Source: an uncultured virus (IMG/VR IMGVR_UViG_3300046003_004339) (lineage: Duplodnaviria; Heunggongvirae; Uroviricota; Caudoviricetes). From it: a stretch of DNA of 20,000 nt. The DNA is taken from the IMG/VR virus record IMGVR_UViG_3300046003_004339. One strand, written 5' to 3'. The position numbers and the translations under genes were made by a program. Each line of letters starts with the position of its first letter. Position 1 is the first letter of the stretch. The notes under the pieces are model-generated. The model was not told where the DNA came from. It worked only from the letters and a program-made list of their open reading frames with translations, and did no database searches. Shown piece after piece: positions 5,690 to 18,961 of this stretch.

Positions 5690-6790
5690 TTATAATGACC
5701 CCGTCGTCGGAGATTTTTTTCCCGCGTCCAATTGCCCACTATTCATCAATTTACTCTTTATATAATTCTCTACATTCTTATCGACTTTCGTTATTACATT
5801 TCCGCGATGGTCCTTGCCATATGTTGAATTCCAAGAAGCCAAATTCTTCATGAGAATTTCCGCGTCTTCTCCCAATTCATTCTTGGTATCTTCTATTGCA
5901 TGAACTAAATTGTGATTTGTTTTTTCGGATATATTATGTGCTCTCAAATAATATATTCCGATTCCAGCAATTGCGGTTAGCCCACCAACCAAAATCATCC
6001 AACCTTCTATAAACGGTATCGCAGCAGTAACCGCAGCAAGAATTCCCGCAATCAACGCTAAACCTTCTTTGCATACCGGCGAATATATAGCAGCAACGAG
6101 TGCAATTGCTGCACCAATACCACACCACATCATAAGCTTAGTTTTCATTCTTTCTATTGAAGCTTGTTTATCGACCGCTTTTGCGGCGGCATCGGCAAGC
6201 TTATCGTTTGCAATCTTTAGGTCCGCTGCCAATTTACTATTTTCGCCAATATACTTTTGCTCGATTTCGAGTTTAGATTTTTCGAGCGCAGAAAGAGCCT
6301 TTTTTGTTTCTTCGGTGTCGTTGGCCAATTTTGCATTTTTTGATAGTGCATCTATGTGGTCTTTTCTGAGTTGGTCGATGGTGGTCAACTTTTCATTTAA
6401 TTCGGTGGTCAATCTTGCATTTTCTGTTTGGATTGCTTCAAAACTTGGAACTTTTCCGAGGGCCGCAGAAGCCTCTGTTACTCTATTGTTTATGATTAAA
6501 TCTAATCTTGTTGGTGATGCATAATATTTAAATGCCTCGTTCGCGCCATATAATTTATTGGCACCCTCTTGTAATTGCATATCCTGCTGCTTTATAATCG
6601 TTTCTTTTTTTTCACTGACTTCTTTTTCTTTTGCTCTCAAGTCAATATCATGTTGTGCTTTCAGTGCGTCCAATTGTACTTCAACTTGGTCCTTTTTTAC
6701 ATAGTATTTGGAGAGAGGATTATATAGAGAACAAGACGGTAATATGAATAGGAATGCCGTCGCCAATATTATTTTATAGTAACATTTCAT
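5690..6790 (-). CDS. lipoprotein with long coiled coil and three C-proximal TM segments
   Basis: Signal peptide with lipobox-like LPSC (Cys20); about 195-aa coiled coil; hydrophobic LMMWCGIGAAIALVAAIY, GLALIAGILAAVTAAIPFI, WMILVGGLTAIAGIGIYYL. Confidence 0.8.
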   Translation of the reverse strand: MKCYYKIILATAFLFILPSCSLYNPLSKYYVKKDQVEVQLDALKAQHDIDLRAKEKEVSEKKETIIKQQDMQLQEGANKLYGANEAFKYYASPTRLDLIINNRVTEASAALGKVPSFEAIQTENARLTTELNEKLTTIDQLRKDHIDALSKNAKLANDTEETKKALSALEKSKLEIEQKYIGENSKLAADLKIANDKLADAAAKAVDKQASIERMKTKLMMWCGIGAAIALVAAIYSPVCKEGLALIAGILAAVTAAIPFIEGWMILVGGLTAIAGIGIYYLRAHNISEKTNHNLVHAIEDTKNELGEDAEILMKNLASWNSTYGKDHRGNVITKVDKNVENYIKSKLMNSGQLDAGKKSPTTGSL

Positions 6791-6802: not shown

Positions 6803-7534
6803 TTATCTATATTTCGCATCAGGTCTATCCATATCAGGATTGTCGTCATGTTTGTTGCGATTTTTTGGAAGTGATGTTCTCGGTGGAGCATCGAACTCAT
6901 CATGTTCTCCGCCCGGATTGTCCACTCCTATAGAAGTGCTTGGCTTCGCGTCTCCTCTTGCCGGTGGCATAGGTAAAAGTTTACCTTTATCGTCGTATGG
7001 CCAACTGTTCTCATCAATTCCTATATCCAACACGGCGTCAATTTTTGCACAATAATGACTCAAATGGTCCGCTTGCTTCGGAGATTTGCTGCTTCCGCCA
7101 ATCTCGGGTGTATTTCCTATTGTTACACCATGTGGCAATCCACCATGTTCAGGAGCCGGTTCCAGTGGCTTGGTAGTTTTGTCGGCTATAGTATTACTTT
7201 GTTCGATGGAATCCAACCCCGAACTTTTCAATGGTGCAGTGTTTTTGCCTAGATTGGATGTCCTCAATGCCGTCGCCTGCTTTCCCGCCATTTGTGTTGG
7301 CGTAACTGGCTTTGGTAGCGATACGCTACCTTTCTGACCCGACTCGGCGCGGTCCATCGCCGCCATCTGGGTGACCTCTGGTTCGTCCACTAACCCAGCG
7401 GACACAAGTCTGCTATAATAAATGGCATCTCCTTTGAGATGGTCCATCGCAATTTTTTGTGCCAACGCTAGATCTCCCGTGTGTTCTTTTTCTACGTTGA
7501 TTCCGAGGTTTAATTCTTTTGGTGATATGTTCAT
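6803..7534 (-). CDS. DUF5661-type domain protein with disordered Pro/Gly-rich tail
   Basis: N-terminal ELNLGINVEKEHTGDLALAQKIAMDHLKGDAIYYSRL matches the G..VE.EH...A..IA.DHL....YY..L pattern recalled for DUF5661; ATGA overlap with upstream gene. Confidence 0.75.
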   Translation of the reverse strand: MNISPKELNLGINVEKEHTGDLALAQKIAMDHLKGDAIYYSRLVSAGLVDEPEVTQMAAMDRAESGQKGSVSLPKPVTPTQMAGKQATALRTSNLGKNTAPLKSSGLDSIEQSNTIADKTTKPLEPAPEHGGLPHGVTIGNTPEIGGSSKSPKQADHLSHYCAKIDAVLDIGIDENSWPYDDKGKLLPMPPARGDAKPSTSIGVDNPGGEHDEFDAPPRTSLPKNRNKHDDNPDMDRPDAKYR

Positions 7535-8847
7535 ATTTTATCGCTGTTGAAATACATGTCCAAATCACTATAGTATTTTGGATTTTTTAATAGGTTGGCC
7601 ACCACAATTGGTCTGGCGACGTCTTTGTCCGGAAATTCCATTTTCTGCATTTCTTGTCGGAAGCCCGCAAACATTTCATCGGTGGAAAATCTCTTATCCG
7701 TCAAATCGTCGTTGGTTATGGTATCGTAGAGCGAGCTTCCGATCACTGTATTTCCCTGCATATACGTGTATCTACGGCTTGCTGGATAGTCCTTCAATCT
7801 ACGGGAAGTTTGTGGACTCGAATTAGTTCCGGCCCATCCCATTGGAGCCATTGGACCACCGGCCATAGCCCCACCGCCGTATCCACCAGAAGTGCCGACG
7901 TTGTATTCACTCATATTATTTTTATTTGGTTCTCTGTGCATGTTCCCGCGTAAATCCGGTCTGTATGATCGCTTGTCATAGTTACTCTTGAATCCAAATC
8001 TTGAATAGAATTTTTTCAATCTGTCGGTGGATGTTGTTTTCTTGAAAACTTCTGGAGCATTGCGATCTCTCAATCCCGTCGTCAGAGTAATTATCATTCC
8101 ATAATCATCCGCAATGGAAATCAAGTCTTTCATGAATGCTGTTCCTGTTCCAACAGGTGCGGTTTTCAATGCACGAAGATTGCCCAAACTTATACCTTTA
8201 TCATCTACAGAAATCCAGCTTTCCAAATGCTCTCTGTACTTACTTGATAGCGCATCAAGTTCTTTTTTTACACTCGATTCCGATTTTTTAGAATCGTTAT
8301 ATTCACTCATATTCACATAATGATTTTCGTCGCGTTTTCCGTTGCTATATAGGAATGCTTCAAACAGTACTTTTGTACCTTCGAACGTTTTATCTCCCAC
8401 CAACTCGTTGCATGTCCCTTTATTGATATAAGCCAATGTCACGTGCGGATTGTAGTTTGGCCACTTGTAATCGTTTTTGCATGTGCGCTTCAAGCTTTCG
8501 TGTATCATCGTCAAATGTGGGCTCTTCACTTCAATCTTTAATACGTCATATGGTTGGTCCGCATTCTCGAATTTAGATACTATGCCTAATTCTGCCACCA
8601 ATTTGCGCGGTATTTTAGATAAAATATTTTTCGCCTTACTTTCTTCCAAGGAGTCTAATCCATACATTACCGTGACATGTGGATTCTTCTCTTTACCATA
8701 ATCTTCCCCGACAATTTCGTAGACATGCTGCTGCGGGATTTTGTTGATATACTCCATGAGTTTTCCATCTTTTGGTATATCAACCATGACACAGTGACCT
8801 TCGGCCAAAATGTCAGGGTAAAATTCGTAATAGTGAAAATTATCCAT
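7531..8847 (-). CDS. multidomain protein: 2H phosphoesterase (Acb1/T4 gp57B-like) + GNAT-like domain + DUF5661-like C-terminal domain
   Basis: Two HxT motifs (NPHVTVMYG, YNPHVTLAY); GNAT-like GTGTAFMKDLISIADDYGMIITL...RLKKFYSRFGF; C-terminal DEMFAGFRQE...DVARPIVVANLLKNPKYYSDL. Confidence 0.8.
   Translation of the reverse strand: MDNFHYYEFYPDILAEGHCVMVDIPKDGKLMEYINKIPQQHVYEIVGEDYGKEKNPHVTVMYGLDSLEESKAKNILSKIPRKLVAELGIVSKFENADQPYDVLKIEVKSPHLTMIHESLKRTCKNDYKWPNYNPHVTLAYINKGTCNELVGDKTFEGTKVLFEAFLYSNGKRDENHYVNMSEYNDSKKSESSVKKELDALSSKYREHLESWISVDDKGISLGNLRALKTAPVGTGTAFMKDLISIADDYGMIITLTTGLRDRNAPEVFKKTTSTDRLKKFYSRFGFKSNYDKRSYRPDLRGNMHREPNKNNMSEYNVGTSGGYGGGAMAGGPMAPMGWAGTNSSPQTSRRLKDYPASRRYTYMQGNTVIGSSLYDTITNDDLTDKRFSTDEMFAGFRQEMQKMEFPDKDVARPIVVANLLKNPKYYSDLDMYFNSDKI
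7899..8313. repeat. 19-nt direct repeat (18/19 identical) flanking the GNAT module
   Basis: cgttgtattcactcatatt (7899-7917) vs cgttatattcactcatatt (8295-8313); 396 nt apart, in frame; both encode NMSEYN. Confidence 0.9.
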
Positions 8848-9181
8848 GGAGTATTCCTTTTCGTGTTTCCGGAATATATTTTCCGGGTGTTAGATGTTTG
8901 CCTTCGGTTTTTCCTTTTAACATGTTCAACACAGTCCGTGGGTTCATGCCATTGAAATTTACTCCTATAATACCACGCTGTTTGCAGAACGCTTCAAGTT
9001 CCAGCATTTCTTCCTGACTGTACTGTGGAATATCAGGATACCAGTCGAATGGTTGTTCTTCCGAACCTTTATGAAATGTTCTACCTTTCAAAAGCGAATT
9101 TATATCAACCGAACTGACCGACTCAGGTTTTCTGTGAGGCGGTATCATGGAGGTGTTCATCATTGGCCAAGATTCATTCAT
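8840..9181 (-). CDS. hypothetical protein (113 aa), first gene of the putative late operon
   Basis: ATG downstream of TATATTTAT motif; 8-nt overlap with next gene. Confidence 0.8.
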   Translation of the reverse strand: MNESWPMMNTSMIPPHRKPESVSSVDINSLLKGRTFHKGSEEQPFDWYPDIPQYSQEEMLELEAFCKQRGIIGVNFNGMNPRTVLNMLKGKTEGKHLTPGKYIPETRKGILHG

Positions 9182-9195
9182 ATATATATTACTTA

Positions 9196-9205
9196 TATAA
9201 ATATA
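9196..9205. promoter_or_regulatory. TATATTTAT motif (-) overlapping TATAAATA (+) in a 31-nt divergent intergenic gap
   Basis: TATAAATATA at 9196-9205 between divergent starts at 9181 (-) and 9213 (+). Confidence 0.55.
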
Positions 9206-9212
9206 ACTTCAT

Positions 9213-9911
9213 ATGAGAATCCGCACACTATTGACATTTTTTATGGTAATTTGCTCTAACCTATTGGCACAAACCTTCTCGGTCACCAAAGGCAGCGTTG
9301 AATGCCTATTGGCCGAGAATACAGCCATATATCTAGCCGAACATTGGACTTCATCCAAGTTCTTAGAAAATGGCCTCAAATTGAAGCTGGTGGAGCCCTA
9401 TGAATTGAACACGATTGGAAATAGTTCTCGATTGTTGTTGAAATTCAGCAATAATATGCAAGTATACTCCGACGGAAAAACTAGCTTACTCGTGGATAAC
9501 TTTGAACAGTTTATAGAAAAAGATGGTACCAAAAATATCTATGATTTCGTAGGAAACTTTAGACTCAAAGGAAAAGCTGAGTTTATATTAGAAAAACTGA
9601 CCGATCTTGGGTTTTTCTCAGTTCAAACTTCCGGAGCAGATTTGGAAATTAAATCTACTCATTTTTATATAATGACCGACGGAAACTCCACTGTTGTAGA
9701 GTGTTATGAAGGACAAATAACATTCACGGACAGTGTCACATTCAAATCAACCACGCTAAACTCCGGGAATTATGCGGAAGTATATGGTACAGACGGAGAA
9801 AAAAACACCATCATAAAAATATATCCACTTGCGGACATCAACAAAAACAAAATCACAGATCGGTCTCTTGAACGCAAGAAATTGTTAGCTGCCGTAAGTT
9901 CCAAGCCCTAA
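9213..9911 (+). CDS. secreted FecR-like domain protein
   Basis: Signal peptide MRIRTLLTFFMVICSNLLA; FecR-like pattern SRLLLKFSNNMQVYSDGKTSL...KGKAEF...FSVQTSGADLEIKSTHF...TVVECYEGQI. Confidence 0.7.
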   Translation: MRIRTLLTFFMVICSNLLAQTFSVTKGSVECLLAENTAIYLAEHWTSSKFLENGLKLKLVEPYELNTIGNSSRLLLKFSNNMQVYSDGKTSLLVDNFEQFIEKDGTKNIYDFVGNFRLKGKAEFILEKLTDLGFFSVQTSGADLEIKSTHFYIMTDGNSTVVECYEGQITFTDSVTFKSTTLNSGNYAEVYGTDGEKNTIIKIYPLADINKNKITDRSLERKKLLAAVSSKP

Positions 9912-10319
9912 ATGAATCTTATCGGCCTTGGTTAGTATACTTTTTATAAAGAATTTCACAAGTCTGCCCGACATTACGTTTGCCTCGTCTTCTATTTCTC
10001 CGCCAATCTCCGGTACAGGTTGGTCGAGCCTACCATCATAATCCTGCTTCATATGAGTCAATTCATGTGCTATCGTGCGGCAATAGTCTATCAGATGCCT
10101 ATTTGCTATAATCGTAGTTACCGTCTTAGTTTGAGGAGAATACGCACCGGTTGTTATAGGTTCGTTAGGTGCCCCACCTAATAGGCGTATCTTAATGTCC
10201 TTTCCTTCCAGCCCAAGTTCACTCACGGCATGTGTCAAAAACTTGAATAATATGGCAACGGTCTTGGGGTCCAACCGCGGAGAGTTCTTATCCTTCAATA
10301 CCCTTATTTTATTTGCCAT
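9885..10319 (-). CDS. zincin-like metallopeptidase (HExxH)
   Basis: TGAYSP...RTIAHELTHMKQ...EIEDEAN. Start moved from 10385 to ATG 10319 (MANKIRV), just downstream of the TATATTTAT motif and clear of the guaC promoter. Confidence 0.85.
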   Translation of the reverse strand: MANKIRVLKDKNSPRLDPKTVAILFKFLTHAVSELGLEGKDIKIRLLGGAPNEPITTGAYSPQTKTVTTIIANRHLIDYCRTIAHELTHMKQDYDGRLDQPVPEIGGEIEDEANVMSGRLVKFFIKSILTKADKIHLGLGTYGS

Positions 10320-10324
10320 ATGTA

Positions 10325-10333
10325 ATAAATATA
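10325..10333 (-). promoter_or_regulatory. TATATTTAT motif (putative phage late promoter)
   Basis: ATATATTTATTACAT-ATG; 5 nt before the 10319 start. Confidence 0.6.
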
Positions 10334-10349
10334 TGGCACTTATTACAAA

Positions 10350-10377
10350 TTGACATCTTTTTGAATTAGAATACCAT
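10350..10377 (+). promoter_or_regulatory. sigma70-like promoter of guaC (near-leaderless transcript)
   Basis: TTGACA (10350-10355), 16-nt spacer, TACCAT (10372-10377); ATG at 10386. Confidence 0.6.
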
Positions 10378-10385
10378 GAATCCAT

Positions 10386-11751: not shown

Positions 11752-12045
11752 TTAAGATTTATTTTCTTCTCGTGGTCGGCATAATGGTTGTGTACCAATA
11801 AAATCTTCAATAGAGAGTTTCGCAAATACTCGATCAACCATTGGCATAATAATCTTAGAAAAATCAAACGGATTTGTTTTCTTATTCTTTTGATTCGGTG
11901 GTCGTCTCCATCCTTCCCACACCACCGTCTTTCCAGATGGTGATACTCTACCCCAGCCTTTTATGGTGTCATGAACAAAACGGTCCTTGTGTGTAGAACA
12001 CACAAAGAACGTATTACCATTTATCTTTTCTCTAAATTTCTTCAT
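11752..12045 (-). CDS. 97-aa protein with C-terminal segment resembling the Gol region of T4-type major capsid proteins
   Basis: ATGA overlap with dut; contains IIMPMVDRVFAKLSIEDFIGTQPLCRP. Confidence 0.75.
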   Translation of the reverse strand: MKKFREKINGNTFFVCSTHKDRFVHDTIKGWGRVSPSGKTVVWEGWRRPPNQKNKKTNPFDFSKIIMPMVDRVFAKLSIEDFIGTQPLCRPREENKS

Positions 12046-12674
12046 ACAAAAAATTTATCCAACACTTGACCGGATGAATCTACTACACAAATTCCCGGTA
12101 TACCTTTTTCTGTACAACTATATATTTCTCCATCATGTCGCATCAGTCTAAATGATGCATTTGCCCACATATCTGTTGGAAGACCCTTTTCGATGGTGGT
12201 CTTTTGTCCCAGCTTGAATCCTTCGTCTCTTCTTGTGGGAGCTTGGCGATGCGGTTTGTCTGTGCTGCCAAACCCGCCGATCCCTCTATTTGTCTCATCA
12301 AGATCGTTTGCTTCAATAAAATCACATCTCGTGTAATTTTCAAAAATCATTTGAGCAATTTTGTCTCCGATGTTTATCTGCTTATCTTCGTCACCAAGGT
12401 TTATGAGTATAACGCCTATTTCTCCTCTATAATCTTCATCAATTACTCCCGCCATAACATCAATACCGTGTTTATATGCCAATCCGCTACGCGGGGCAAT
12501 TCTTCCGTATAATCCACTTGGAATTGCCATATACAACCCCGTTTTGAATAATTTTCTTTCTCTTGGGCGTAATGTATAGTTTTCAGTAGAAGACAGATCA
12601 CATCCAGCGGACTTGTTATTCCACGTTGGTATTACTCCACCATTAACTGTTTTTATTTGTATTTTTGTATTCAT
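12042..12674 (-). CDS. dut: trimeric dUTPase with 71-aa C-terminal extension
   Basis: Motifs I-V: AGCDL, IAPRSGLA, GVIDEDYRGEI, GDKIAQM, RGIGGFGST. Start set to MNTKIQ (12674). Confidence 0.95.
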   Translation of the reverse strand: MNTKIQIKTVNGGVIPTWNNKSAGCDLSSTENYTLRPRERKLFKTGLYMAIPSGLYGRIAPRSGLAYKHGIDVMAGVIDEDYRGEIGVILINLGDEDKQINIGDKIAQMIFENYTRCDFIEANDLDETNRGIGGFGSTDKPHRQAPTRRDEGFKLGQKTTIEKGLPTDMWANASFRLMRHDGEIYSCTEKGIPGICVVDSSGQVLDKFFV

Positions 12675-13548
12675 AAATAAATTCTTTCCATTGTTTTTCG
12701 TCGTTTTTTCCATAACCGTATTTTTTGTGAAATTGAATGTGTATTTTTCTTGAAACTGTAATTCCATTACTTACATCAAACCTCAAAATTTTGTCATTAT
12801 CCCAACTTCGGATATGATGGGCAACCAATTGACCACCGATTTGGCCGGACACTTGGCACTTGTGGTTATCTCTGAAAAAAATAAGATTTCTCCATTTTTT
12901 ATGGGCATCAGTATTCCATCTTCTTTTTCCAAGTTCTCTTTCTTTGCTGGATATTTCCCGTTTCCATCTAGGATGGTTTTCTTTTTTCATTTCATTTATC
13001 AAACAACCGCAACTCTTTGTGTTTCCAGATATGAGAGAAGCGGACCTAATACTCGCAACATTTCCGCATTCACATTTACATTTCCAATGAACATATTCTA
13101 GATCGTCTTTCTGATTATCATCCAATTCAATTACAAGAAGTCGCCCAAATTTATTACCAATTAAATTTTTTGTTCTTGTTTCTTTTATTCGTTTTTTCAA
13201 ATAACAGCCGCAACTTGTGGTGTGTCCGGATTTCAAAGCGTGTGAACTGGTCCGTGTTGTTTTTCCACATTCACACTCGCATTTCCACATTATATCATTT
13301 TTTCTTTTTCCGTCGTATTGTAAAACCGTCAGTTTGTTGAATTTTTTCCCATCCAACCGTTCAAATGTTTTACTACAACCGCAAGATTTATATGTTCCAT
13401 TTTTCAATCTGGCAGAAGTGACACTGAGTGTGTTTCCGCATTCACATTCACATTCCCATAAAATTCCATAATGGTTGCTTCCATTTTTTCGCAAGACCTT
13501 TAACATTCCAAATTTCATGTTAGATAAATCATTCATATGCTCGCTCAT
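12643..13548 (-). mobile_element. free-standing HNH homing endonuclease with three Cys-rich N-terminal repeats
   Basis: Three units L.G.KF..L.V...W.C.CECG......L..G...SCGC, then HNH domain WRNLIFFRDNHKCQ...LVAHHI...NGITV...H..FH; 3' end overlaps dut start by 32 nt. Confidence 0.88.
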
Positions 13549-14690: not shown

Positions 14691-14968
14691 ACTCGGTTAA
14701 TTTTTATCGTGAAGTTGTCGTCTTCTCCGTTTATGTAACATTTATATGTGTTCTCCGATTTCTGGTATATCTTTCCCCAAAATAGAACCTCACAGTCGCC
14801 GTCGATTAAAAACTCGTCTCCGTCTTCTACTATTGCACCGCTTCCGTGGCTCACTAAGAACTTCACACCAATTAGGTCAGGTTTGGCGTTCCATGCCCAC
14901 CAATATTGTTTTTCTTTTCTTCTTTCCATGAAAGAAATCATTTGGCATCTGGTGCAATCATGTTTCAT
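14687..14968 (-). CDS. hypothetical protein (93 aa)
   Basis: ATGA overlaps at both ends. Confidence 0.75.
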   Translation of the reverse strand: MKHDCTRCQMISFMERRKEKQYWWAWNAKPDLIGVKFLVSHGSGAIVEDGDEFLIDGDCEVLFWGKIYQKSENTYKCYINGEDDNFTIKINRV

Positions 14969-16170
14969 ACTTTTATAAGCGATTTGCTAATATCTTTTAC
15001 AGTCTTTGTTTTCAATTTGAATATACCCAGTTCCATTTCAGCATTGTCTTCCACACCTTCTGATATAATATCTGTTAGTTTCATCAAAATAGCGGAGTTT
15101 TCATTGCCATTGAGCATAAAATCCTTTTGGCTAAAATACAACAGTATGTCATTATTGATTTGTTCTATATAGCCATGATTATATATGCGAGCCTTCAAAT
15201 CAATTTTTGTGGTTGGTTGTTCTTTTGATATATATCTTTCAGCACAAGCCATGTTGTCAACAAAGATGTTGGATGCCCAAGTTTCAACAAAATGAAGAAA
15301 ATCTTCACTGGTTACATCAGTCAGTACAAATCCAATGTTATACACAGGATGTGTGATTGGCATTCTATATTCATCGTGACTCATCCACTTATGCCACTTT
15401 CTGAGGTAGTTTCTACTCGCTCTATTGTTATAGAATTGAAACATGTTGTCGTCTTTGAACACACCATTCTTGGCCCATCCTCGATGGCCCTTCGATATAA
15501 AATGAAAACATAGACTATCTCTGCTTTGTATTAGATTATATCCAGCAAGTTTCCAACGAAGGAATATGTCAAAATCTTCATGGGGGTATGGGGCCAGCTT
15601 TATCCAGTGTCCACCAACCGCAAGAAAATCTTCTTTGCTTATCATCCAAGGTGCGAACATACCATTGGTTTTTTTATCTTTGCTATCAATCTGCTCTTGA
15701 GATGCAAATGCTGTAAATTCTTCTTTCTTGAACTCATGAAACTCTATGCCAAATGGCTTGAGTATCTTTTCTTTGCCCGCTGGATAAATACCTTCTGGTT
15801 CAATGCGTGTGGCACATACAACAGTCTTTTCCTTGTAGTGCTTGAGCATATTCTCCAGATAGTTCTTGGCACAAATCATGTCACTGTGGAAAATAGTGAC
15901 GAGTGGATTTCTTGCCATCTTGATCCCTAAATCATATGTTATACAATGCCCAAGAATGTTTCCTGTTGTGTTATTCCATATACGCAGATTATCATCCAAC
16001 TTGATTTGTGCTTCAAGATAATCGGCAGTTCCATCTGTGCTACCATCGTCAAGTATAATAATCTCATTGCTTGGATAGAACTCTCGCAGGCTTCTATATG
16101 CCATCATTGTATAATTTAGAGTATTATACGATGGCAGTACAAATGTTACATCTTTAGTTGAGTATTTCAT
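14965..16170 (-). CDS. GT2-family (GT-A fold) glycosyltransferase with C-terminal extension
   Basis: VTFVLPSYN, EIIILDDGSTDGT, IFHSDM, HEDFDIFLR...GY, CFHF. Start set to MKYSTKD (16170, ATGA overlap). Confidence 0.9.
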   Translation of the reverse strand: MKYSTKDVTFVLPSYNTLNYTMMAYRSLREFYPSNEIIILDDGSTDGTADYLEAQIKLDDNLRIWNNTTGNILGHCITYDLGIKMARNPLVTIFHSDMICAKNYLENMLKHYKEKTVVCATRIEPEGIYPAGKEKILKPFGIEFHEFKKEEFTAFASQEQIDSKDKKTNGMFAPWMISKEDFLAVGGHWIKLAPYPHEDFDIFLRWKLAGYNLIQSRDSLCFHFISKGHRGWAKNGVFKDDNMFQFYNNRASRNYLRKWHKWMSHDEYRMPITHPVYNIGFVLTDVTSEDFLHFVETWASNIFVDNMACAERYISKEQPTTKIDLKARIYNHGYIEQINNDILLYFSQKDFMLNGNENSAILMKLTDIISEGVEDNAEMELGIFKLKTKTVKDISKSLIKV

Positions 16171-16370
16171 CCTATTATTCCTTTCGCACATCCCATGTCA
16201 TATTCGGCTTTTGTTATTTCAGCAAATGATGTAATACACCATGTTTCTGGTTGTTGAACCGTATTTTCATACAACTCAACAACGCTGTTTCCTTCAAACA
16301 AGTCGGTACCACAGTTCCAAGTTGATGAACCTTTGGTTTTCCATATAAAACTATAAACGTAGTATTTCAT
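16167..16370 (-). CDS. hypothetical protein (67 aa)
   Basis: ATGA overlaps at both ends. Confidence 0.75.
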   Translation of the reverse strand: MKYYVYSFIWKTKGSSTWNCGTDLFEGNSVVELYENTVQQPETWCITSFAEITKAEYDMGCAKGIIG

Positions 16371-16555: not shown

Positions 16556-16848
16556 ACTTTTTCATTTACTATAGTCGCTTCAAATTCATTGACATGGCAC
16601 CATTCACCGTCCCATCGCTCCTCGCCAACAGCCCATCCATTGCCATTTTCGTTTGGATTATCCTCACACACCCGAACTCCTCTAACACATATACCCGTCT
16701 CCTTTGTTGCCGTTTGCCATTGTTCCAATGTGACGCGATACAAATCATTTGTCGGATTGCAATCATAATCATATACTTCGGTTCCTTCTTTGAACCAAGT
16801 ATCATGTTTAGCTATCAGTTTTACATACTTTTGGGCTGCTGGTGTCAT
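16552..16848 (-). CDS. hypothetical protein (98 aa), begins MTPAAQKY
   Basis: ATGA overlaps at both ends. Confidence 0.8.
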   Translation of the reverse strand: MTPAAQKYVKLIAKHDTWFKEGTEVYDYDCNPTNDLYRVTLEQWQTATKETGICVRGVRVCEDNPNENGNGWAVGEERWDGEWCHVNEFEATIVNEKV

Positions 16849-17279
16849 GGTTTCAATAATTCAGGATAATGATGTATATTACCGATTATCGTTTTAGTTT
16901 CTTTACTATCATCTTCCCAGTTGTTTCCTAGCCAACCATTGTTAAAAGACTCACTACCTATTTTTTGATAATACCAACCACGATGGTATTCTTGTTCGTT
17001 GTCTCTGTATCTTCCAAACACAACCACACTTTTTACATCTGGATATTTGTGTTGAACAATATCTCCATCGTAAATCTCTTTGTTATTTTTGTCCTTTAGA
17101 CCAGTAGAAAATTCTATAACAACATCTTCTTCTTTCAATAACAATACATTATGTTTTGCTGGCCCGCCAGCATCATCCAAATCAATCTTATAGCTGAATA
17201 CATGACCGGATTCTCCAACTACAATAGAGTTTATCCAATTATTATATGGTTTATACCAAGTTCTAAAGTTTGTTTTCAT
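16845..17279 (-). CDS. YopX-family protein
   Basis: NFRTW...FSTGLKDKNNKEIYDGDIV...IIGNIHHYPELL; start set to ATG 17279. Confidence 0.88.
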   Translation of the reverse strand: MKTNFRTWYKPYNNWINSIVVGESGHVFSYKIDLDDAGGPAKHNVLLLKEEDVVIEFSTGLKDKNNKEIYDGDIVQHKYPDVKSVVVFGRYRDNEQEYHRGWYYQKIGSESFNNGWLGNNWEDDSKETKTIIGNIHHYPELLKP

Positions 17280-17283
17280 AAAA

Positions 17284-17598
17284 TTAAGCAGTTGCAATCC
17301 ATAGCCCCCGACGATTTTTATCTTCGGCGATTAAACTTTCTTTCAACGCTTTTAAGCACATCTCTAATTTTTCGTTCGCGTTTTTAACAGCATCTTCTTT
17401 TCTTAGTACTGGATGACTATATTCTTCGGCACATATAAGGTCTTCCATTGATGCTTTGACATAAGAAAGTATTGTAGCAGAACTTGGTGTAAAATCGTGA
17501 TGATACCTCTTCCTAATCTTTTCTACATTTCCTTCTTTACATAACGCTGCATTTTCCGAACTGAGTTGTTCGGAGTATTTGTTTACTATAGGATTCAT
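17284..17598 (-). CDS. hypothetical protein (104 aa)
   Basis: ATGA overlap with upstream YopX gene. Confidence 0.75.
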   Translation of the reverse strand: MNPIVNKYSEQLSSENAALCKEGNVEKIRKRYHHDFTPSSATILSYVKASMEDLICAEEYSHPVLRKEDAVKNANEKLEMCLKALKESLIAEDKNRRGLWIATA

Positions 17599-18050
17599 AG
17601 TTCGTATTTTACAAGTTTAGGATTTTGGTGAATGTTTCCAACGACTTCGGCGTATTCTATAAAATATGAAGATATTGGCTCATATTCATCACCATAATAT
17701 TCTTTTTGTCCACTGAGTCCCGTCCACACTTCTCTGGGCATTTTGAGATAAAATCCACCATTTTTCCAAGTAACAACTAAACTTTTATAACTGTAGTCTC
17801 CCGAGCTGTCTCTTTCATGCCCTGCGGAATATTCTACATCCAAAATATCACCCTCCCACATTTCTGTTCCATTGCAATCCTTTAGACCAGTGTATTGAGT
17901 AATGACATATTTATTTCTCCAATCACCTCCATTGCCATCATTATACAGTGGGCGTAATATGCCATCATCACTGAATACTTCTACGATAGCAGGATTGTCC
18001 CACTCTTTATCAACATTGTTCCATATTCTAAATTTTAGTTCTCTGTTCAT
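17595..18050 (-). CDS. YopX-family protein
   Basis: MNRELKFRIW...QYTGLKDCNGTEMWEGDIL...EVVGNIHQNPKL. Confidence 0.92.
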   Translation of the reverse strand: MNRELKFRIWNNVDKEWDNPAIVEVFSDDGILRPLYNDGNGGDWRNKYVITQYTGLKDCNGTEMWEGDILDVEYSAGHERDSSGDYSYKSLVVTWKNGGFYLKMPREVWTGLSGQKEYYGDEYEPISSYFIEYAEVVGNIHQNPKLVKYEL

Positions 18051-18961
18051 ACATCCTTTATGACATCACTATAGTCCCCTGTCAAGTATTTATCTCTGTT
18101 CTTGTTGTATATTTCACGCATTTTATCAGTCACTTTGATAAAACCATATTCATCATACGACGGTGGTTCTCCGCCCCATATCTTCAACCACTTTTGATAG
18201 TTGCGAGCCTCACCTTGTTTTTGTCGGTCAGATGTTCCAGTAAGTTTATCATGTTGTCCAAGAAAATGACTGCTGCGTGCTCCAAAGTGCCAAACCAATG
18301 CTTTGCCTGTCACAACAAAATCATATCCTTCCAACTGCATTCTTACACTTTGATCATGATCTTCGAAACTCGTGGGCCTATAAGCATCCGAGTTATTTAG
18401 AAAATACTTTGTTCGCATCATATAAGATACACCTTCTACTTTTCTAAAATCAGGAGCATTGGATATAGAAACAAAGTCATCTGCCCAATCCAAAAACTCT
18501 TGTTTCAAGAAGTCGTGATGATATACACCAAATCCACCATTTACAGGTGCAAACATAGTACCAAGTCTGTCTGTGTTGTTGAATATATTGGGTTCAAGTC
18601 TCCAAGAACAAGCAACCATCGGCTTTTCTGTGGATGATACAATATCAAACAATGGAGCATCATAATGACGACTGATATACATGTCACTATGAACAAGACA
18701 CATATATTCTGTTTTTACACGCTTGACTGCTTCATTTACTCCACCACCAATGCCCTTTGGTATAGCATTTTCTTCGTAGATATATTGTATATCTGGCTGT
18801 TGTGCTAACCAATCCCTCGTTTCTGTGTCATTTTCTGTATAAACAAGAATTGGCTGCTCTTTATAAAAAGCATTTTCGCGTATAGACTCAATCACTAATT
18901 TGAGATACGGAAGTGAGCGGAAAGTATTACAGACCCAACTAAATTTTGTTTCGTTATTCAT
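18047..18961 (-). CDS. GT2-family (GT-A fold) glycosyltransferase
   Basis: GGGVNEAVKRVKTEYMCLVHSDM, FEDHDQSVRMQLEGY, VWHFGARS; similar to 14965..16170. Confidence 0.85.
   Translation of the reverse strand: MNNETKFSWVCNTFRSLPYLKLVIESIRENAFYKEQPILVYTENDTETRDWLAQQPDIQYIYEENAIPKGIGGGVNEAVKRVKTEYMCLVHSDMYISRHYDAPLFDIVSSTEKPMVACSWRLEPNIFNNTDRLGTMFAPVNGGFGVYHHDFLKQEFLDWADDFVSISNAPDFRKVEGVSYMMRTKYFLNNSDAYRPTSFEDHDQSVRMQLEGYDFVVTGKALVWHFGARSSHFLGQHDKLTGTSDRQKQGEARNYQKWLKIWGGEPPSYDEYGFIKVTDKMREIYNKNRDKYLTGDYSDVIKDV

Follow-up and report, generated by a model that had tools for sequence, protein, structure and literature searches.

A 2H phosphoesterase fused to a minimal GNAT domain on a constant C-terminal module in a freshwater phage lineage

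Why would a phage join a 2H phosphoesterase and a minimal GNAT acetyltransferase in one polypeptide, and which part of that protein defines the locus encoding it? These questions are raised by a 20,000-nucleotide (nt) stretch of DNA from an uncultured virus (IMG/VR record IMGVR_UViG_3300046003_004339), referred to here as the window. In it, three minus-strand open reading frames (ORFs) encoding proteins of 113, 438, and 243 amino acids (aa) overlap by 8 nt (first and second) and by 4 nt (second and third). The 438-aa protein carries a 2H domain and a GNAT-fold domain as N-terminal cargo on a C-terminal region, the C-module. What stays constant in the locus is the C-module and not the enzymes, and the GNAT domain is inserted; both points were missed by the original prediction, a short note made from the window's sequence. 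What is new here is that the tail is constant while the N-terminal cargo varies among syntenic phages and that the GNAT domain is a repeat-flanked cassette. A counter-defense role of the 438-aa protein is plausible, and we put the probability that it is a two-enzyme, polyvalent-type effector used against host defense at roughly 50%, judging from sequence, structural models, and analogy.

The DNA belongs to an uncultured lake or freshwater phage; each of 19 coded runs contains at least half of the words sampled from it, and 9 of these runs may be its source. The largest viral contigs carrying syntenic relatives reach 297 kb, and one such contig (G002, 297 kb) was rated 100% complete; these sizes point to a jumbo-phage lineage. 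No cultured relative was found by blastn with the locus or by tblastn with the C-module, and a helicase search gave only matches of at most 26% identity. A single-protein search for the locus in viral contigs returned nothing, and the nearest record (G001) was also without a match.

Constant C-terminal module and variable cargo

The syntenic loci share a gene order: an HExxH protein, the 113-aa protein, the cargo fused to the C-module, a DUF5661 tail protein, a protein of about 118 aa (in several loci), a lipoprotein, and later a helicase. Within this order the cargo differs. It is a 2H domain in L001, L002, L013, L014, L016, and L018, and an N-terminal domain with leucine-rich-like repeats followed by 2H in the 692-aa protein of L003. 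L004 and L005 carry a GNAT domain with a small beta-rich domain, L006 and L007 the small beta-rich domain only, and L009, L010, and L012 no cargo. Alignments define a core family of about 305 aa made up of 2H, a glycine-rich segment, and the C-terminal region, without GNAT. The combination of 2H, GNAT, and C-module found in the window is rare and was represented by three 90%-identity clusters (P0001 to P0003) among the best 120 of 166 hits.

The GNAT cassette of the window measures 396 nt and has at either end a copy of a 19-nt direct repeat (18 of 19 positions identical, copies spaced 396 nt apart) encoding N-M-S-E-Y-N, a peptide that also opens the constant module in all relatives. When the window protein was compared with its sister P0002, the 2H region was identical at 117 of 182 residues (64%), and the GNAT domain and C-module were identical throughout (131/131 and 125/125, respectively). 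The sequence comparisons show modular recombination at an N-M-[KS]-E-Y junction, with a constant C-module and variable cargo. Domain-level cassette exchange is thus visible in the flanking repeat, in the jump in identity from 64% (2H) to 100% (GNAT) where the two domains meet, and in the alternative cargos, and such loci can guide mining for further anti-defense enzymes.

Contigs identical to the window span the cassette in independent lake runs, indicating that the three-part architecture is not an assembly artifact. Two lake runs also contain a second form of the contig, whose sequence departs from the window inside the 2H end, adjacent to the upstream repeat copy; we infer that its loose end is a 2H end of the P0002 type. 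Run X11 yielded a contig of a distant relative in which stretches have been replaced. None of the four runs examined showed a form lacking the cassette, and contigs cannot demonstrate absence.

The C-module combines strong conservation with predicted disorder. Alignment columns for aa 314-371 are nearly invariant, yet this segment had predicted local distance difference test (pLDDT) scores of 25 to 35 in two models; the glycine-rich stretch as a whole (aa 309-371) stayed below 40, and the helices of the hairpin that follows it (aa 389-433 in the model) reached 71 to 91. The original prediction of a glycine-rich linker and a DUF5661-like C-terminal end was right, the latter by profile comparison only. 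Alignment of the hairpin with DUF5661 by hhalign gave a probability of 80% (E of 1.5e-5, 43 columns), but Pfam DUF5661 (PF18905) did not match the 438-aa protein at E values up to 0.1, and the true DUF5661 opens the next gene, where aa 8-43 of the 243-aa protein scored 29.5 bits (cut-off, 27). The two genes are fused into one in many relatives (P0014, P0072, P0119, P0120, and others). A natural fused module (L009, 275 aa) was modeled as two hairpins and disorder only (mean pLDDT, 56). Complex prediction for the C-module (128 aa) with the DUF5661 N terminus (70 aa) scored 0.01 against a mark of 0.32, a value without bearing on whether the two bind. The C-module matched only clusters of viral hypothetical proteins in the ESM Atlas (scores of 0.81 or less), a homology search with aa 1-60 of the 243-aa protein recovered only its own cluster, and a full-text literature search for "DUF5661" found no papers.

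Several side observations concern the tail proteins. Those with DUF5661 end in D-P-[LI]-[DN]-H-[FY], a motif also found at the beginning of the conserved gene that follows, which encodes about 118 aa (L004 to L012; for example, L004 9515-9871); the corresponding stretch of the window's 243-aa protein reads A-D-H-L-S-H-Y. This may be a shared docking or processing motif. In the freshwater metatranscriptome X20, two 151-nt contigs (window positions 7033-7183 and 7276-7426) were identical to the 243-aa gene, a weak hint of its transcription, with DNA carry-over possible.

The 2H and GNAT domains and what they may do

Both cargo domains, 2H (aa 16-181) and GNAT (aa 186-308), were modeled mostly at pLDDT 80 to 94. 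The original prediction of a 2H domain with both HxT motifs is borne out by H57-V-T59 and H135-V-T137 and by a two-lobed 2H fold in the model. Across a 37-member family alignment, H57, F93, H135, and T137 do not vary, and at least 90% of members retain T59. Pfam Acb1 (PF23474) matched the 438-aa protein at 31.5 bits (33.8 for the domain alone; cut-off, 27) and matched all 37 family members. The domain also matched phrog_755, annotated "RNA ligase" (E of 5e-13). The sole solved structure found by sequence with the 438-aa protein was Acb1 7t26 (E of 0.058, aa 84-147), and hhalign of the family against T4 Acb1 (gene 57B) gave a probability of 87% over 62 columns of the second lobe; the likeness of the second 2H lobe to Acb1, noted in the original prediction, is real.

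Acb1 is described as using base-stacking residues Y12, W74, F107, and W147 together with E141 and a C-terminal lid at residues 145-152 (PMC9117128). In the alignment with T4 Acb1, W74 falls on the invariant F93 of the window family and F107 on W129, and Y12, E141, and the lid could not be placed. E. coli ThpR, too, has an aromatic residue at the F93 column.

Structural comparison by VIA-align returned 2H structures at Z scores of 10.4 to 13.9, among them drCPDase (13.9), Usb1 (13.0), LigT-like chains (13.0 and 12.8), Acb1 7t27 (11.5; 134 of 140 residues aligned, 20% identity), the phosphodiesterase (PDE) of rotavirus VP3 (11.5), the penguinpox cyclic GMP-AMP PDE (11.2), and the Burkholderia phage BCSR5 PDE (10.7; 20% identity). 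Foldseek gave 41 matches at E values of 1e-3 or less, those displayed being all 2H proteins; the best target-normalized template modeling score was that of Acb1 (0.68; root mean square deviation [rmsd], 3.5). A literature search for "BCSR5" with "phosphodiesterase" found nothing. As judged from sequence and models, the domain is a phage 2H enzyme with intact catalytic motifs and an Acb1-like core, computationally inseparable from other 2H activities.

The GNAT-like assignment of the middle domain also stood, in that its modeled fold is that of a GNAT enzyme (beta4-alpha3-beta5-alpha4 core). Its best structural match was AcrVA5 (6iuf_B; Z of 9.9, rmsd of 2.9, 93 of 95 residues), followed by about 30 GNAT acetyltransferases at Z scores of 6.8 to 8.6, all placed on model residues 187 to 312 or thereabouts. 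Acetyl-CoA pyrophosphate is bound by GNAT enzymes through a loop with the motif Q/R-x-x-G-x-G/A. In the P-V-G-T-G-T-A loop of the window domain, G233 and G235 are invariant in 20 relatives, and the Q/R position is not kept. The relatives also share an extra conserved tail, Y-R-P-D-L-x-G-N-M-H-R-x-P. A search of the Protein Data Bank with the GNAT family profile found no match.

Relatives of this GNAT domain were collected from viral contigs, where 311 of 422 pattern matches were confirmed, 80 loci were kept, and 58 were examined; the other 22 were left out by eye as apparent duplicates, a choice made before results were seen. Alignment A5 was used, and A3 and A6 were set aside because they misplaced stand-alone GNATs onto other domains. 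The domain occurred in ORFs of more than 1,000 aa at 21 of the 58 loci and in ORFs of 150 aa or less at 18. When 17 larger relatives were scanned with Pfam, 8 had a GNAT family at the homologous place (5 above cut-off), 4 contained ART-PolyVal, 1 an ADP-ribosyl exotoxin-type domain, and 1 LPD38 with Helicase_C. The window GNAT shares 32% identity with the L004 copy at the same slot and 45 to 55% with stand-alone and polyvalent copies, which suggests separate acquisitions. One further relative (P0131) carries two mini-GNAT copies in tandem.

Both families recur in giant polyvalent phage proteins, as the original prediction had supposed: 33 of the best 150 library hits were proteins of 1,000 to 5,614 aa carrying 2H or GNAT. 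Its word "polyprotein" did not hold, as no sign of cleavage was seen. Polyvalent-type 2H domains were predicted by Iyer et al. in 2017 to degrade defense nucleotides (PMC5512222), and that paper describes a phage GNAT family that usually neighbors an ADP-ribosyltransferase (ART) domain, a description that the GNAT relatives with ART-PolyVal match. AcrVA5 inactivates Cas12a by acetylation, and AcrVA5Bsp, a structural homologue from Bacteroidota-associated phage contigs that lies beside HNH endonucleases, also blocks Cas12a (PMC10799925). The 80 loci retained from 311 did not include the AcrVA5Bsp contig, and the window domain may still be related to it.

Given the prediction of Iyer et al. for 2H domains and given Acb1 and AcrVA5 as the nearest characterized relatives, counter-defense is, by analogy, the most likely role. 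One polypeptide presents a 2H phosphoesterase and a minimal GNAT with intact catalytic motifs on a clade-specific C-terminal module, which continues in the next gene as a true DUF5661 with a motif-bearing tail. The substrate of the 2H domain would be a host-defense nucleotide or oligonucleotide: a cyclic oligonucleotide signal, like that hydrolyzed by Acb1, or one with a related linkage of the 2',3'-cyclic or 2'-5' type. The GNAT domain would acetylate a host protein, by analogy with AcrVA5 on Cas12a, and the two enzymes together would blunt host immunity early in infection, with the C-module acting as a common adaptor to position any cargo fused to it. An arms-race signature is suggested by the differing syntenic cargo, the repeat, the identity step, and the recovery of cassette DNA in independent runs.

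Several findings weigh against this anti-defense interpretation. The generic family 2_5_RNA_ligase2 (PF13563) matched the 438-aa protein at 28.2 bits (32.8 for the domain alone; cut-off, 27), nearly equal to Acb1, and it matched 36 of the 37 family members; the closest folds (Z of 12.8 to 13.9) were those of drCPDase, Usb1, and LigT-like proteins, with Acb1 lower at 11.5. The label "Acb1-like" in the original prediction is thus no better supported than a generic 2H assignment. Only positions 33 to 113 of the 144-position Acb1 model were matched, the N-terminal stacking residue and the C-terminal lid not being alignable. AcrVA5 shares 15% identity with the window GNAT, and a shared fold is no proof of function; no Pfam family matched the window GNAT, and among close relatives 3 of 20 reached Acetyltransf_7, the best at an E value of only 0.012. 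Since 78 of 115 C-module proteins of at least 225 aa have 2H by precomputed Pfam and 37 do not, the tail may be a specific 2H partner rather than a general adaptor. Because the complete relative G002 has an RNA_ligase-family gene, though at a distance of about 63 kb, RNA-end healing is a possibility. Finally, no host defense system can be named.

Three other explanations were considered. In the first, which we regard as unlikely, the C-module and DUF5661 tail would serve as a signal that targets the protein to the capsid or for ejection, and the enzymes would be injected together with the DNA. A constant tail with changing cargo resembles the arrangement in T4 internal proteins, which share a common targeting sequence. 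DUF5661 (E of 1.2e-18) lies inside a DUF2213 head-module protein of Vibrio phage VPs20, adjoining cement and major capsid genes, and occurs with DUF6321 in a 609-aa protein of cyanophage S-SRM01 located between terminase and virion genes. It is also found alone in Caulobacter phage Cr30 and in a protein of Flavobacterium phage immuto among early and metabolic genes, settings that count against packaging, so these genomic contexts make the capsid link of DUF5661 a lead and no more. Neither the window nor the 16-kb syntenic loci compared contained a structural gene, no fusion to a MuF or portal domain was seen, and there is no cultured relative. Packaging in the virion, which the original prediction had raised as a possibility and for which the promoter-like motif described below is the only basis, has no support in the gene content. 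Another point in favor of this explanation is that polyvalent proteins have been proposed to be packaged (PMC5512222).

The second explanation, RNA-damage repair, seems to us improbable. In it, a LigT/ThpR-type 2H domain would heal tRNA or mRNA ends cut by host anticodon nucleases together with a phage ligase encoded elsewhere, with GNAT as a passenger. The CPDase and LigT-like folds at the top of the structural matches agree with it, as does hhalign of the family against E. coli ThpR, which covered both HxT lobes (probability of 62%, 113 columns); some sources label relatives "2'-5' RNA ligase," and the RNA_ligase match in G002 reached 91 bits. However, the NCBIfam ThpR equivalog (TIGR02258) scored 19.7 bits against a cut-off of 65.7, no RNA ligase or kinase-phosphatase was present among the 29 window ORFs scanned, the ligase match in G002 is far from the locus, and RtcB was absent from five of five related records. 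Polyvalent-type 2H domains never associate with RNA ligases, according to Iyer et al. (PMC5512222).

The third, host takeover by a Usb1-like RNase acting on host RNA and a GNAT that acetylates host transcription or translation proteins, is very doubtful: the Usb1 fold, the location of the locus among replication and nucleotide-metabolism genes, and the account of Iyer et al., in which an RNase role is one of two options and polyvalent GNATs fall in a RimI-like protein-modifying clade (PMC5512222), speak for it, but conservation would be expected and L009, L010, and L012 carry the locus without enzyme cargo, and the sequence affinity is to Acb1 and 2'-5' ligase-type families, not to Usb1.

For the counter-defense reading, the consequences would be as follows. 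If both domains act on immunity, the protein would be a natural fusion of two counter-defense chemistries, signal destruction and protein acetylation, and a compact candidate for assays. A bolder proposal, which we hold only tentatively and think unlikely as a whole, is that the glycine-rich, tandem DUF5661-type module is a hitherto undescribed cargo adaptor of a freshwater jumbo-phage clade, bringing counter-defense enzymes recombined at the N-M-[KS]-E-Y junction to a fixed place, possibly into the capsid for injection. If true, this would be a phage analogue of the logic of polymorphic toxins or T4 internal proteins, and the window protein would be a freshly built two-warhead form combining a signal-degrading 2H with an AcrVA5-like acetyltransferase. 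A first hypothesis of function would also be at hand for the constant tail and for DUF5661, on which no paper was found.

Genomic setting of the locus

Table 1. Features of the locus and its conserved neighbors (positions in the window)
Feature	Position	Strand	Remarks
113-aa protein, operon gene 1	8840..9181	-	No assigned family
438-aa protein	7531..8847	-	2H phosphoesterase, mini-GNAT, and constant C-terminal module
2H phosphoesterase domain, aa 16-181	8305..8802	-	Pfam, PHROG, fold, invariant residues
HxT motif H57-V-T59	8671-8679	-	In 2H domain
HxT motif H135-V-T137	8437-8445	-	In 2H domain
Minimal GNAT-fold domain, aa 186-308	7924..8292	-	Inserted cassette; structural match to AcrVA5
19-nt direct repeat, upstream copy	8295..8313		Encodes N-M-S-E-Y-N; flanks GNAT cassette
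19-nt direct repeat, downstream copy	7899..7917		Flanks GNAT cassette
Glycine-rich conserved segment, aa 314-371	7735..7908	-	GGYGGGAMAGG..WAGT..RRL..YMQGNT; predicted disordered
DUF5661-like helical hairpin, aa 387-433	7549..7689	-	Without E-x-E-H and D-H residues
243-aa protein	6803..7534	-	DUF5661 at aa 8-43 (nt 7406-7513); long low-complexity tail with conserved short motifs
HExxH neighbor (H-E-L-T-H)	9885..10385	-	Zincin-like by motif only; conserved upstream
366-aa predicted lipoprotein	5690..6790	-	Long coiled coil, C-terminal hydrophobic helices; conserved downstream
TATATTTAT promoter-like motif	9197-9205	-	16 nt upstream of 113-aa ATG

The operon is preceded by TATATTTAT. The window holds six copies of this motif, all on the minus strand, against 0.78 expected (six were reached in 1 of 200 shuffles), and each stands 0 to 33 nt upstream of an ATG. 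Of 13 syntenic loci, at least 8 have the motif ahead of the operon's first gene. In L004, L006, L007, L009, and L012 that gene encodes the 113-aa homologue and the spacing is the same; in L001, L002, and L010 it is an additional gene further upstream. In the complete relative G002, it occurred 47 times, versus 27 for a reversed control. The excess of copies, their proximity to ATG codons, and their recurrence in syntenic loci indicate, at the level of sequence, that TATATTTAT is a real conserved promoter-like element. It resembles both TATAAATA, the late consensus of T4, and TAnnTTTG, the -7 box of Bacteroidota. The window genes preceded by it are nonstructural and encode an HNH endonuclease, the HExxH protein, and proteins without an assigned family. 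The original prediction of a late operon, which had been drawn from the motif, finds no support in these surroundings: the neighbors are replication and nucleotide-metabolism genes, with none structural in 20 kb. Families found among the 29 ORFs scanned were a SNF2/DEAD-type helicase, a dUTPase, a GMP-reductase/IMPDH-family enzyme, two HNH endonucleases, two family-2 glycosyltransferases, and two YopX proteins.

In 12 of 13 syntenic loci, the gene immediately upstream of the cargo gene encodes a homologue of the 113-aa protein (tblastn, E of 1e-5 or less); at that position L016 has only an ORF, without homology at the tblastn level. The 113-aa protein had no Pfam, PHROG, NCBIfam, or PADLOC match, and the ESM Atlas gave nothing usable. 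For the HExxH neighbor, no Pfam or PHROG family and no PDB sequence match was found. Alignments with its homologues begin at about residue 9-33, and an ATG at 10319 stands just after a copy of TATATTTAT (10325-10333); the listed start is probably too far upstream, and the true start is likely this ATG. Homologues of the 366-aa lipoprotein lie downstream in L004 to L012, L016, L018, and L034, and superinfection exclusion and lysis are possibilities for this lipoprotein-like protein.

Several further genes were noted in passing. A 232-aa, secreted-looking protein (9213-9911, plus strand; FecR-family match of 27.7 bits, cut-off 24) is encoded on the opposite strand between the HExxH and 113-aa genes. 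It is not at that place in the syntenic loci, L018 having a partial homologue at another place and in another orientation, and it looks like an inserted moron. Extra genes also interrupt the syntenic block in L001 (8927-9703) and L003 (12022-13021); the L001 example, a 258-aa cysteine-rich ORF, sits between the 2H gene and the DUF5661 gene. Such insertions fit homing-endonuclease-type traffic around the locus. The dUTPase and an HNH endonuclease ORF (12042-12767 and 12643-13548, minus strand) overlap by 125 nt as listed; the dUTPase probably starts further downstream, as its Pfam match begins only at residue 49. Two paralogous family-2 glycosyltransferases (14965-16191 and 18047-18961) and two paralogous YopX proteins (16845-17297 and 17595-18050) lie within 4 kb on the minus strand, and the glycosyltransferases might modify DNA or the cell surface.

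Comparison with known systems

Among characterized 2H enzymes, Acb1 (T4 gp57B; Erwinia phage FBB1, PDB 7t26/7t27), which acts against the cyclic oligonucleotide-based antiphage signaling system (CBASS), shares with the window domain a compact 2H fold, the HxT/HxT tetrad, the passing of the Pfam Acb1 profile, about 20% identity (joint highest among the 2H structures matched), and, in the hhalign alignment, aromatic residues at the W74 and F107 positions. Acb1, however, is a stand-alone protein of 152 aa, whereas the window 2H is about 166 aa and is fused to GNAT and the tail; only the central part aligns, and no counterpart of the N-terminal stacking residue, E141, or the lid can be recognized in it. 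The LigT/ThpR 2',3'-cyclic phosphodiesterases belong to the same superfamily and share the fold and both alignable HxT lobes, but the window 2H falls short of their equivalog score, has no neighboring ligase, and belongs to a phage-specific family.

AcrVA5 (PDB 6iuf) and AcrVA5Bsp are, like the window GNAT, phage-encoded minimal GNATs of about 95 to 125 residues, and AcrVA5 is its best structural match. The likeness comes from the fold only, and the window GNAT, in contrast to these proteins, is a domain inside a larger protein and belongs to a family with the extra conserved tail described above.

The polyvalent proteins of Iyer, Burroughs, Anand, de Souza, and Aravind (2017) likewise unite disparate enzymes in one chain, include giant chains in which these 2H and GNAT families accompany ART-PolyVal, LPD38, and helicase domains, and have a predicted role in conflict with host defense. 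Unlike them, the window protein has only two enzymes in 438 aa and a locus without a MuF or portal anchor or a structural-gene neighborhood, and it is anchored on a clade-specific module of glycine-rich and tandem DUF5661-type segments. The parts of the window protein are thus of known kinds; their combination, the constant module, and the cassette exchange are new.

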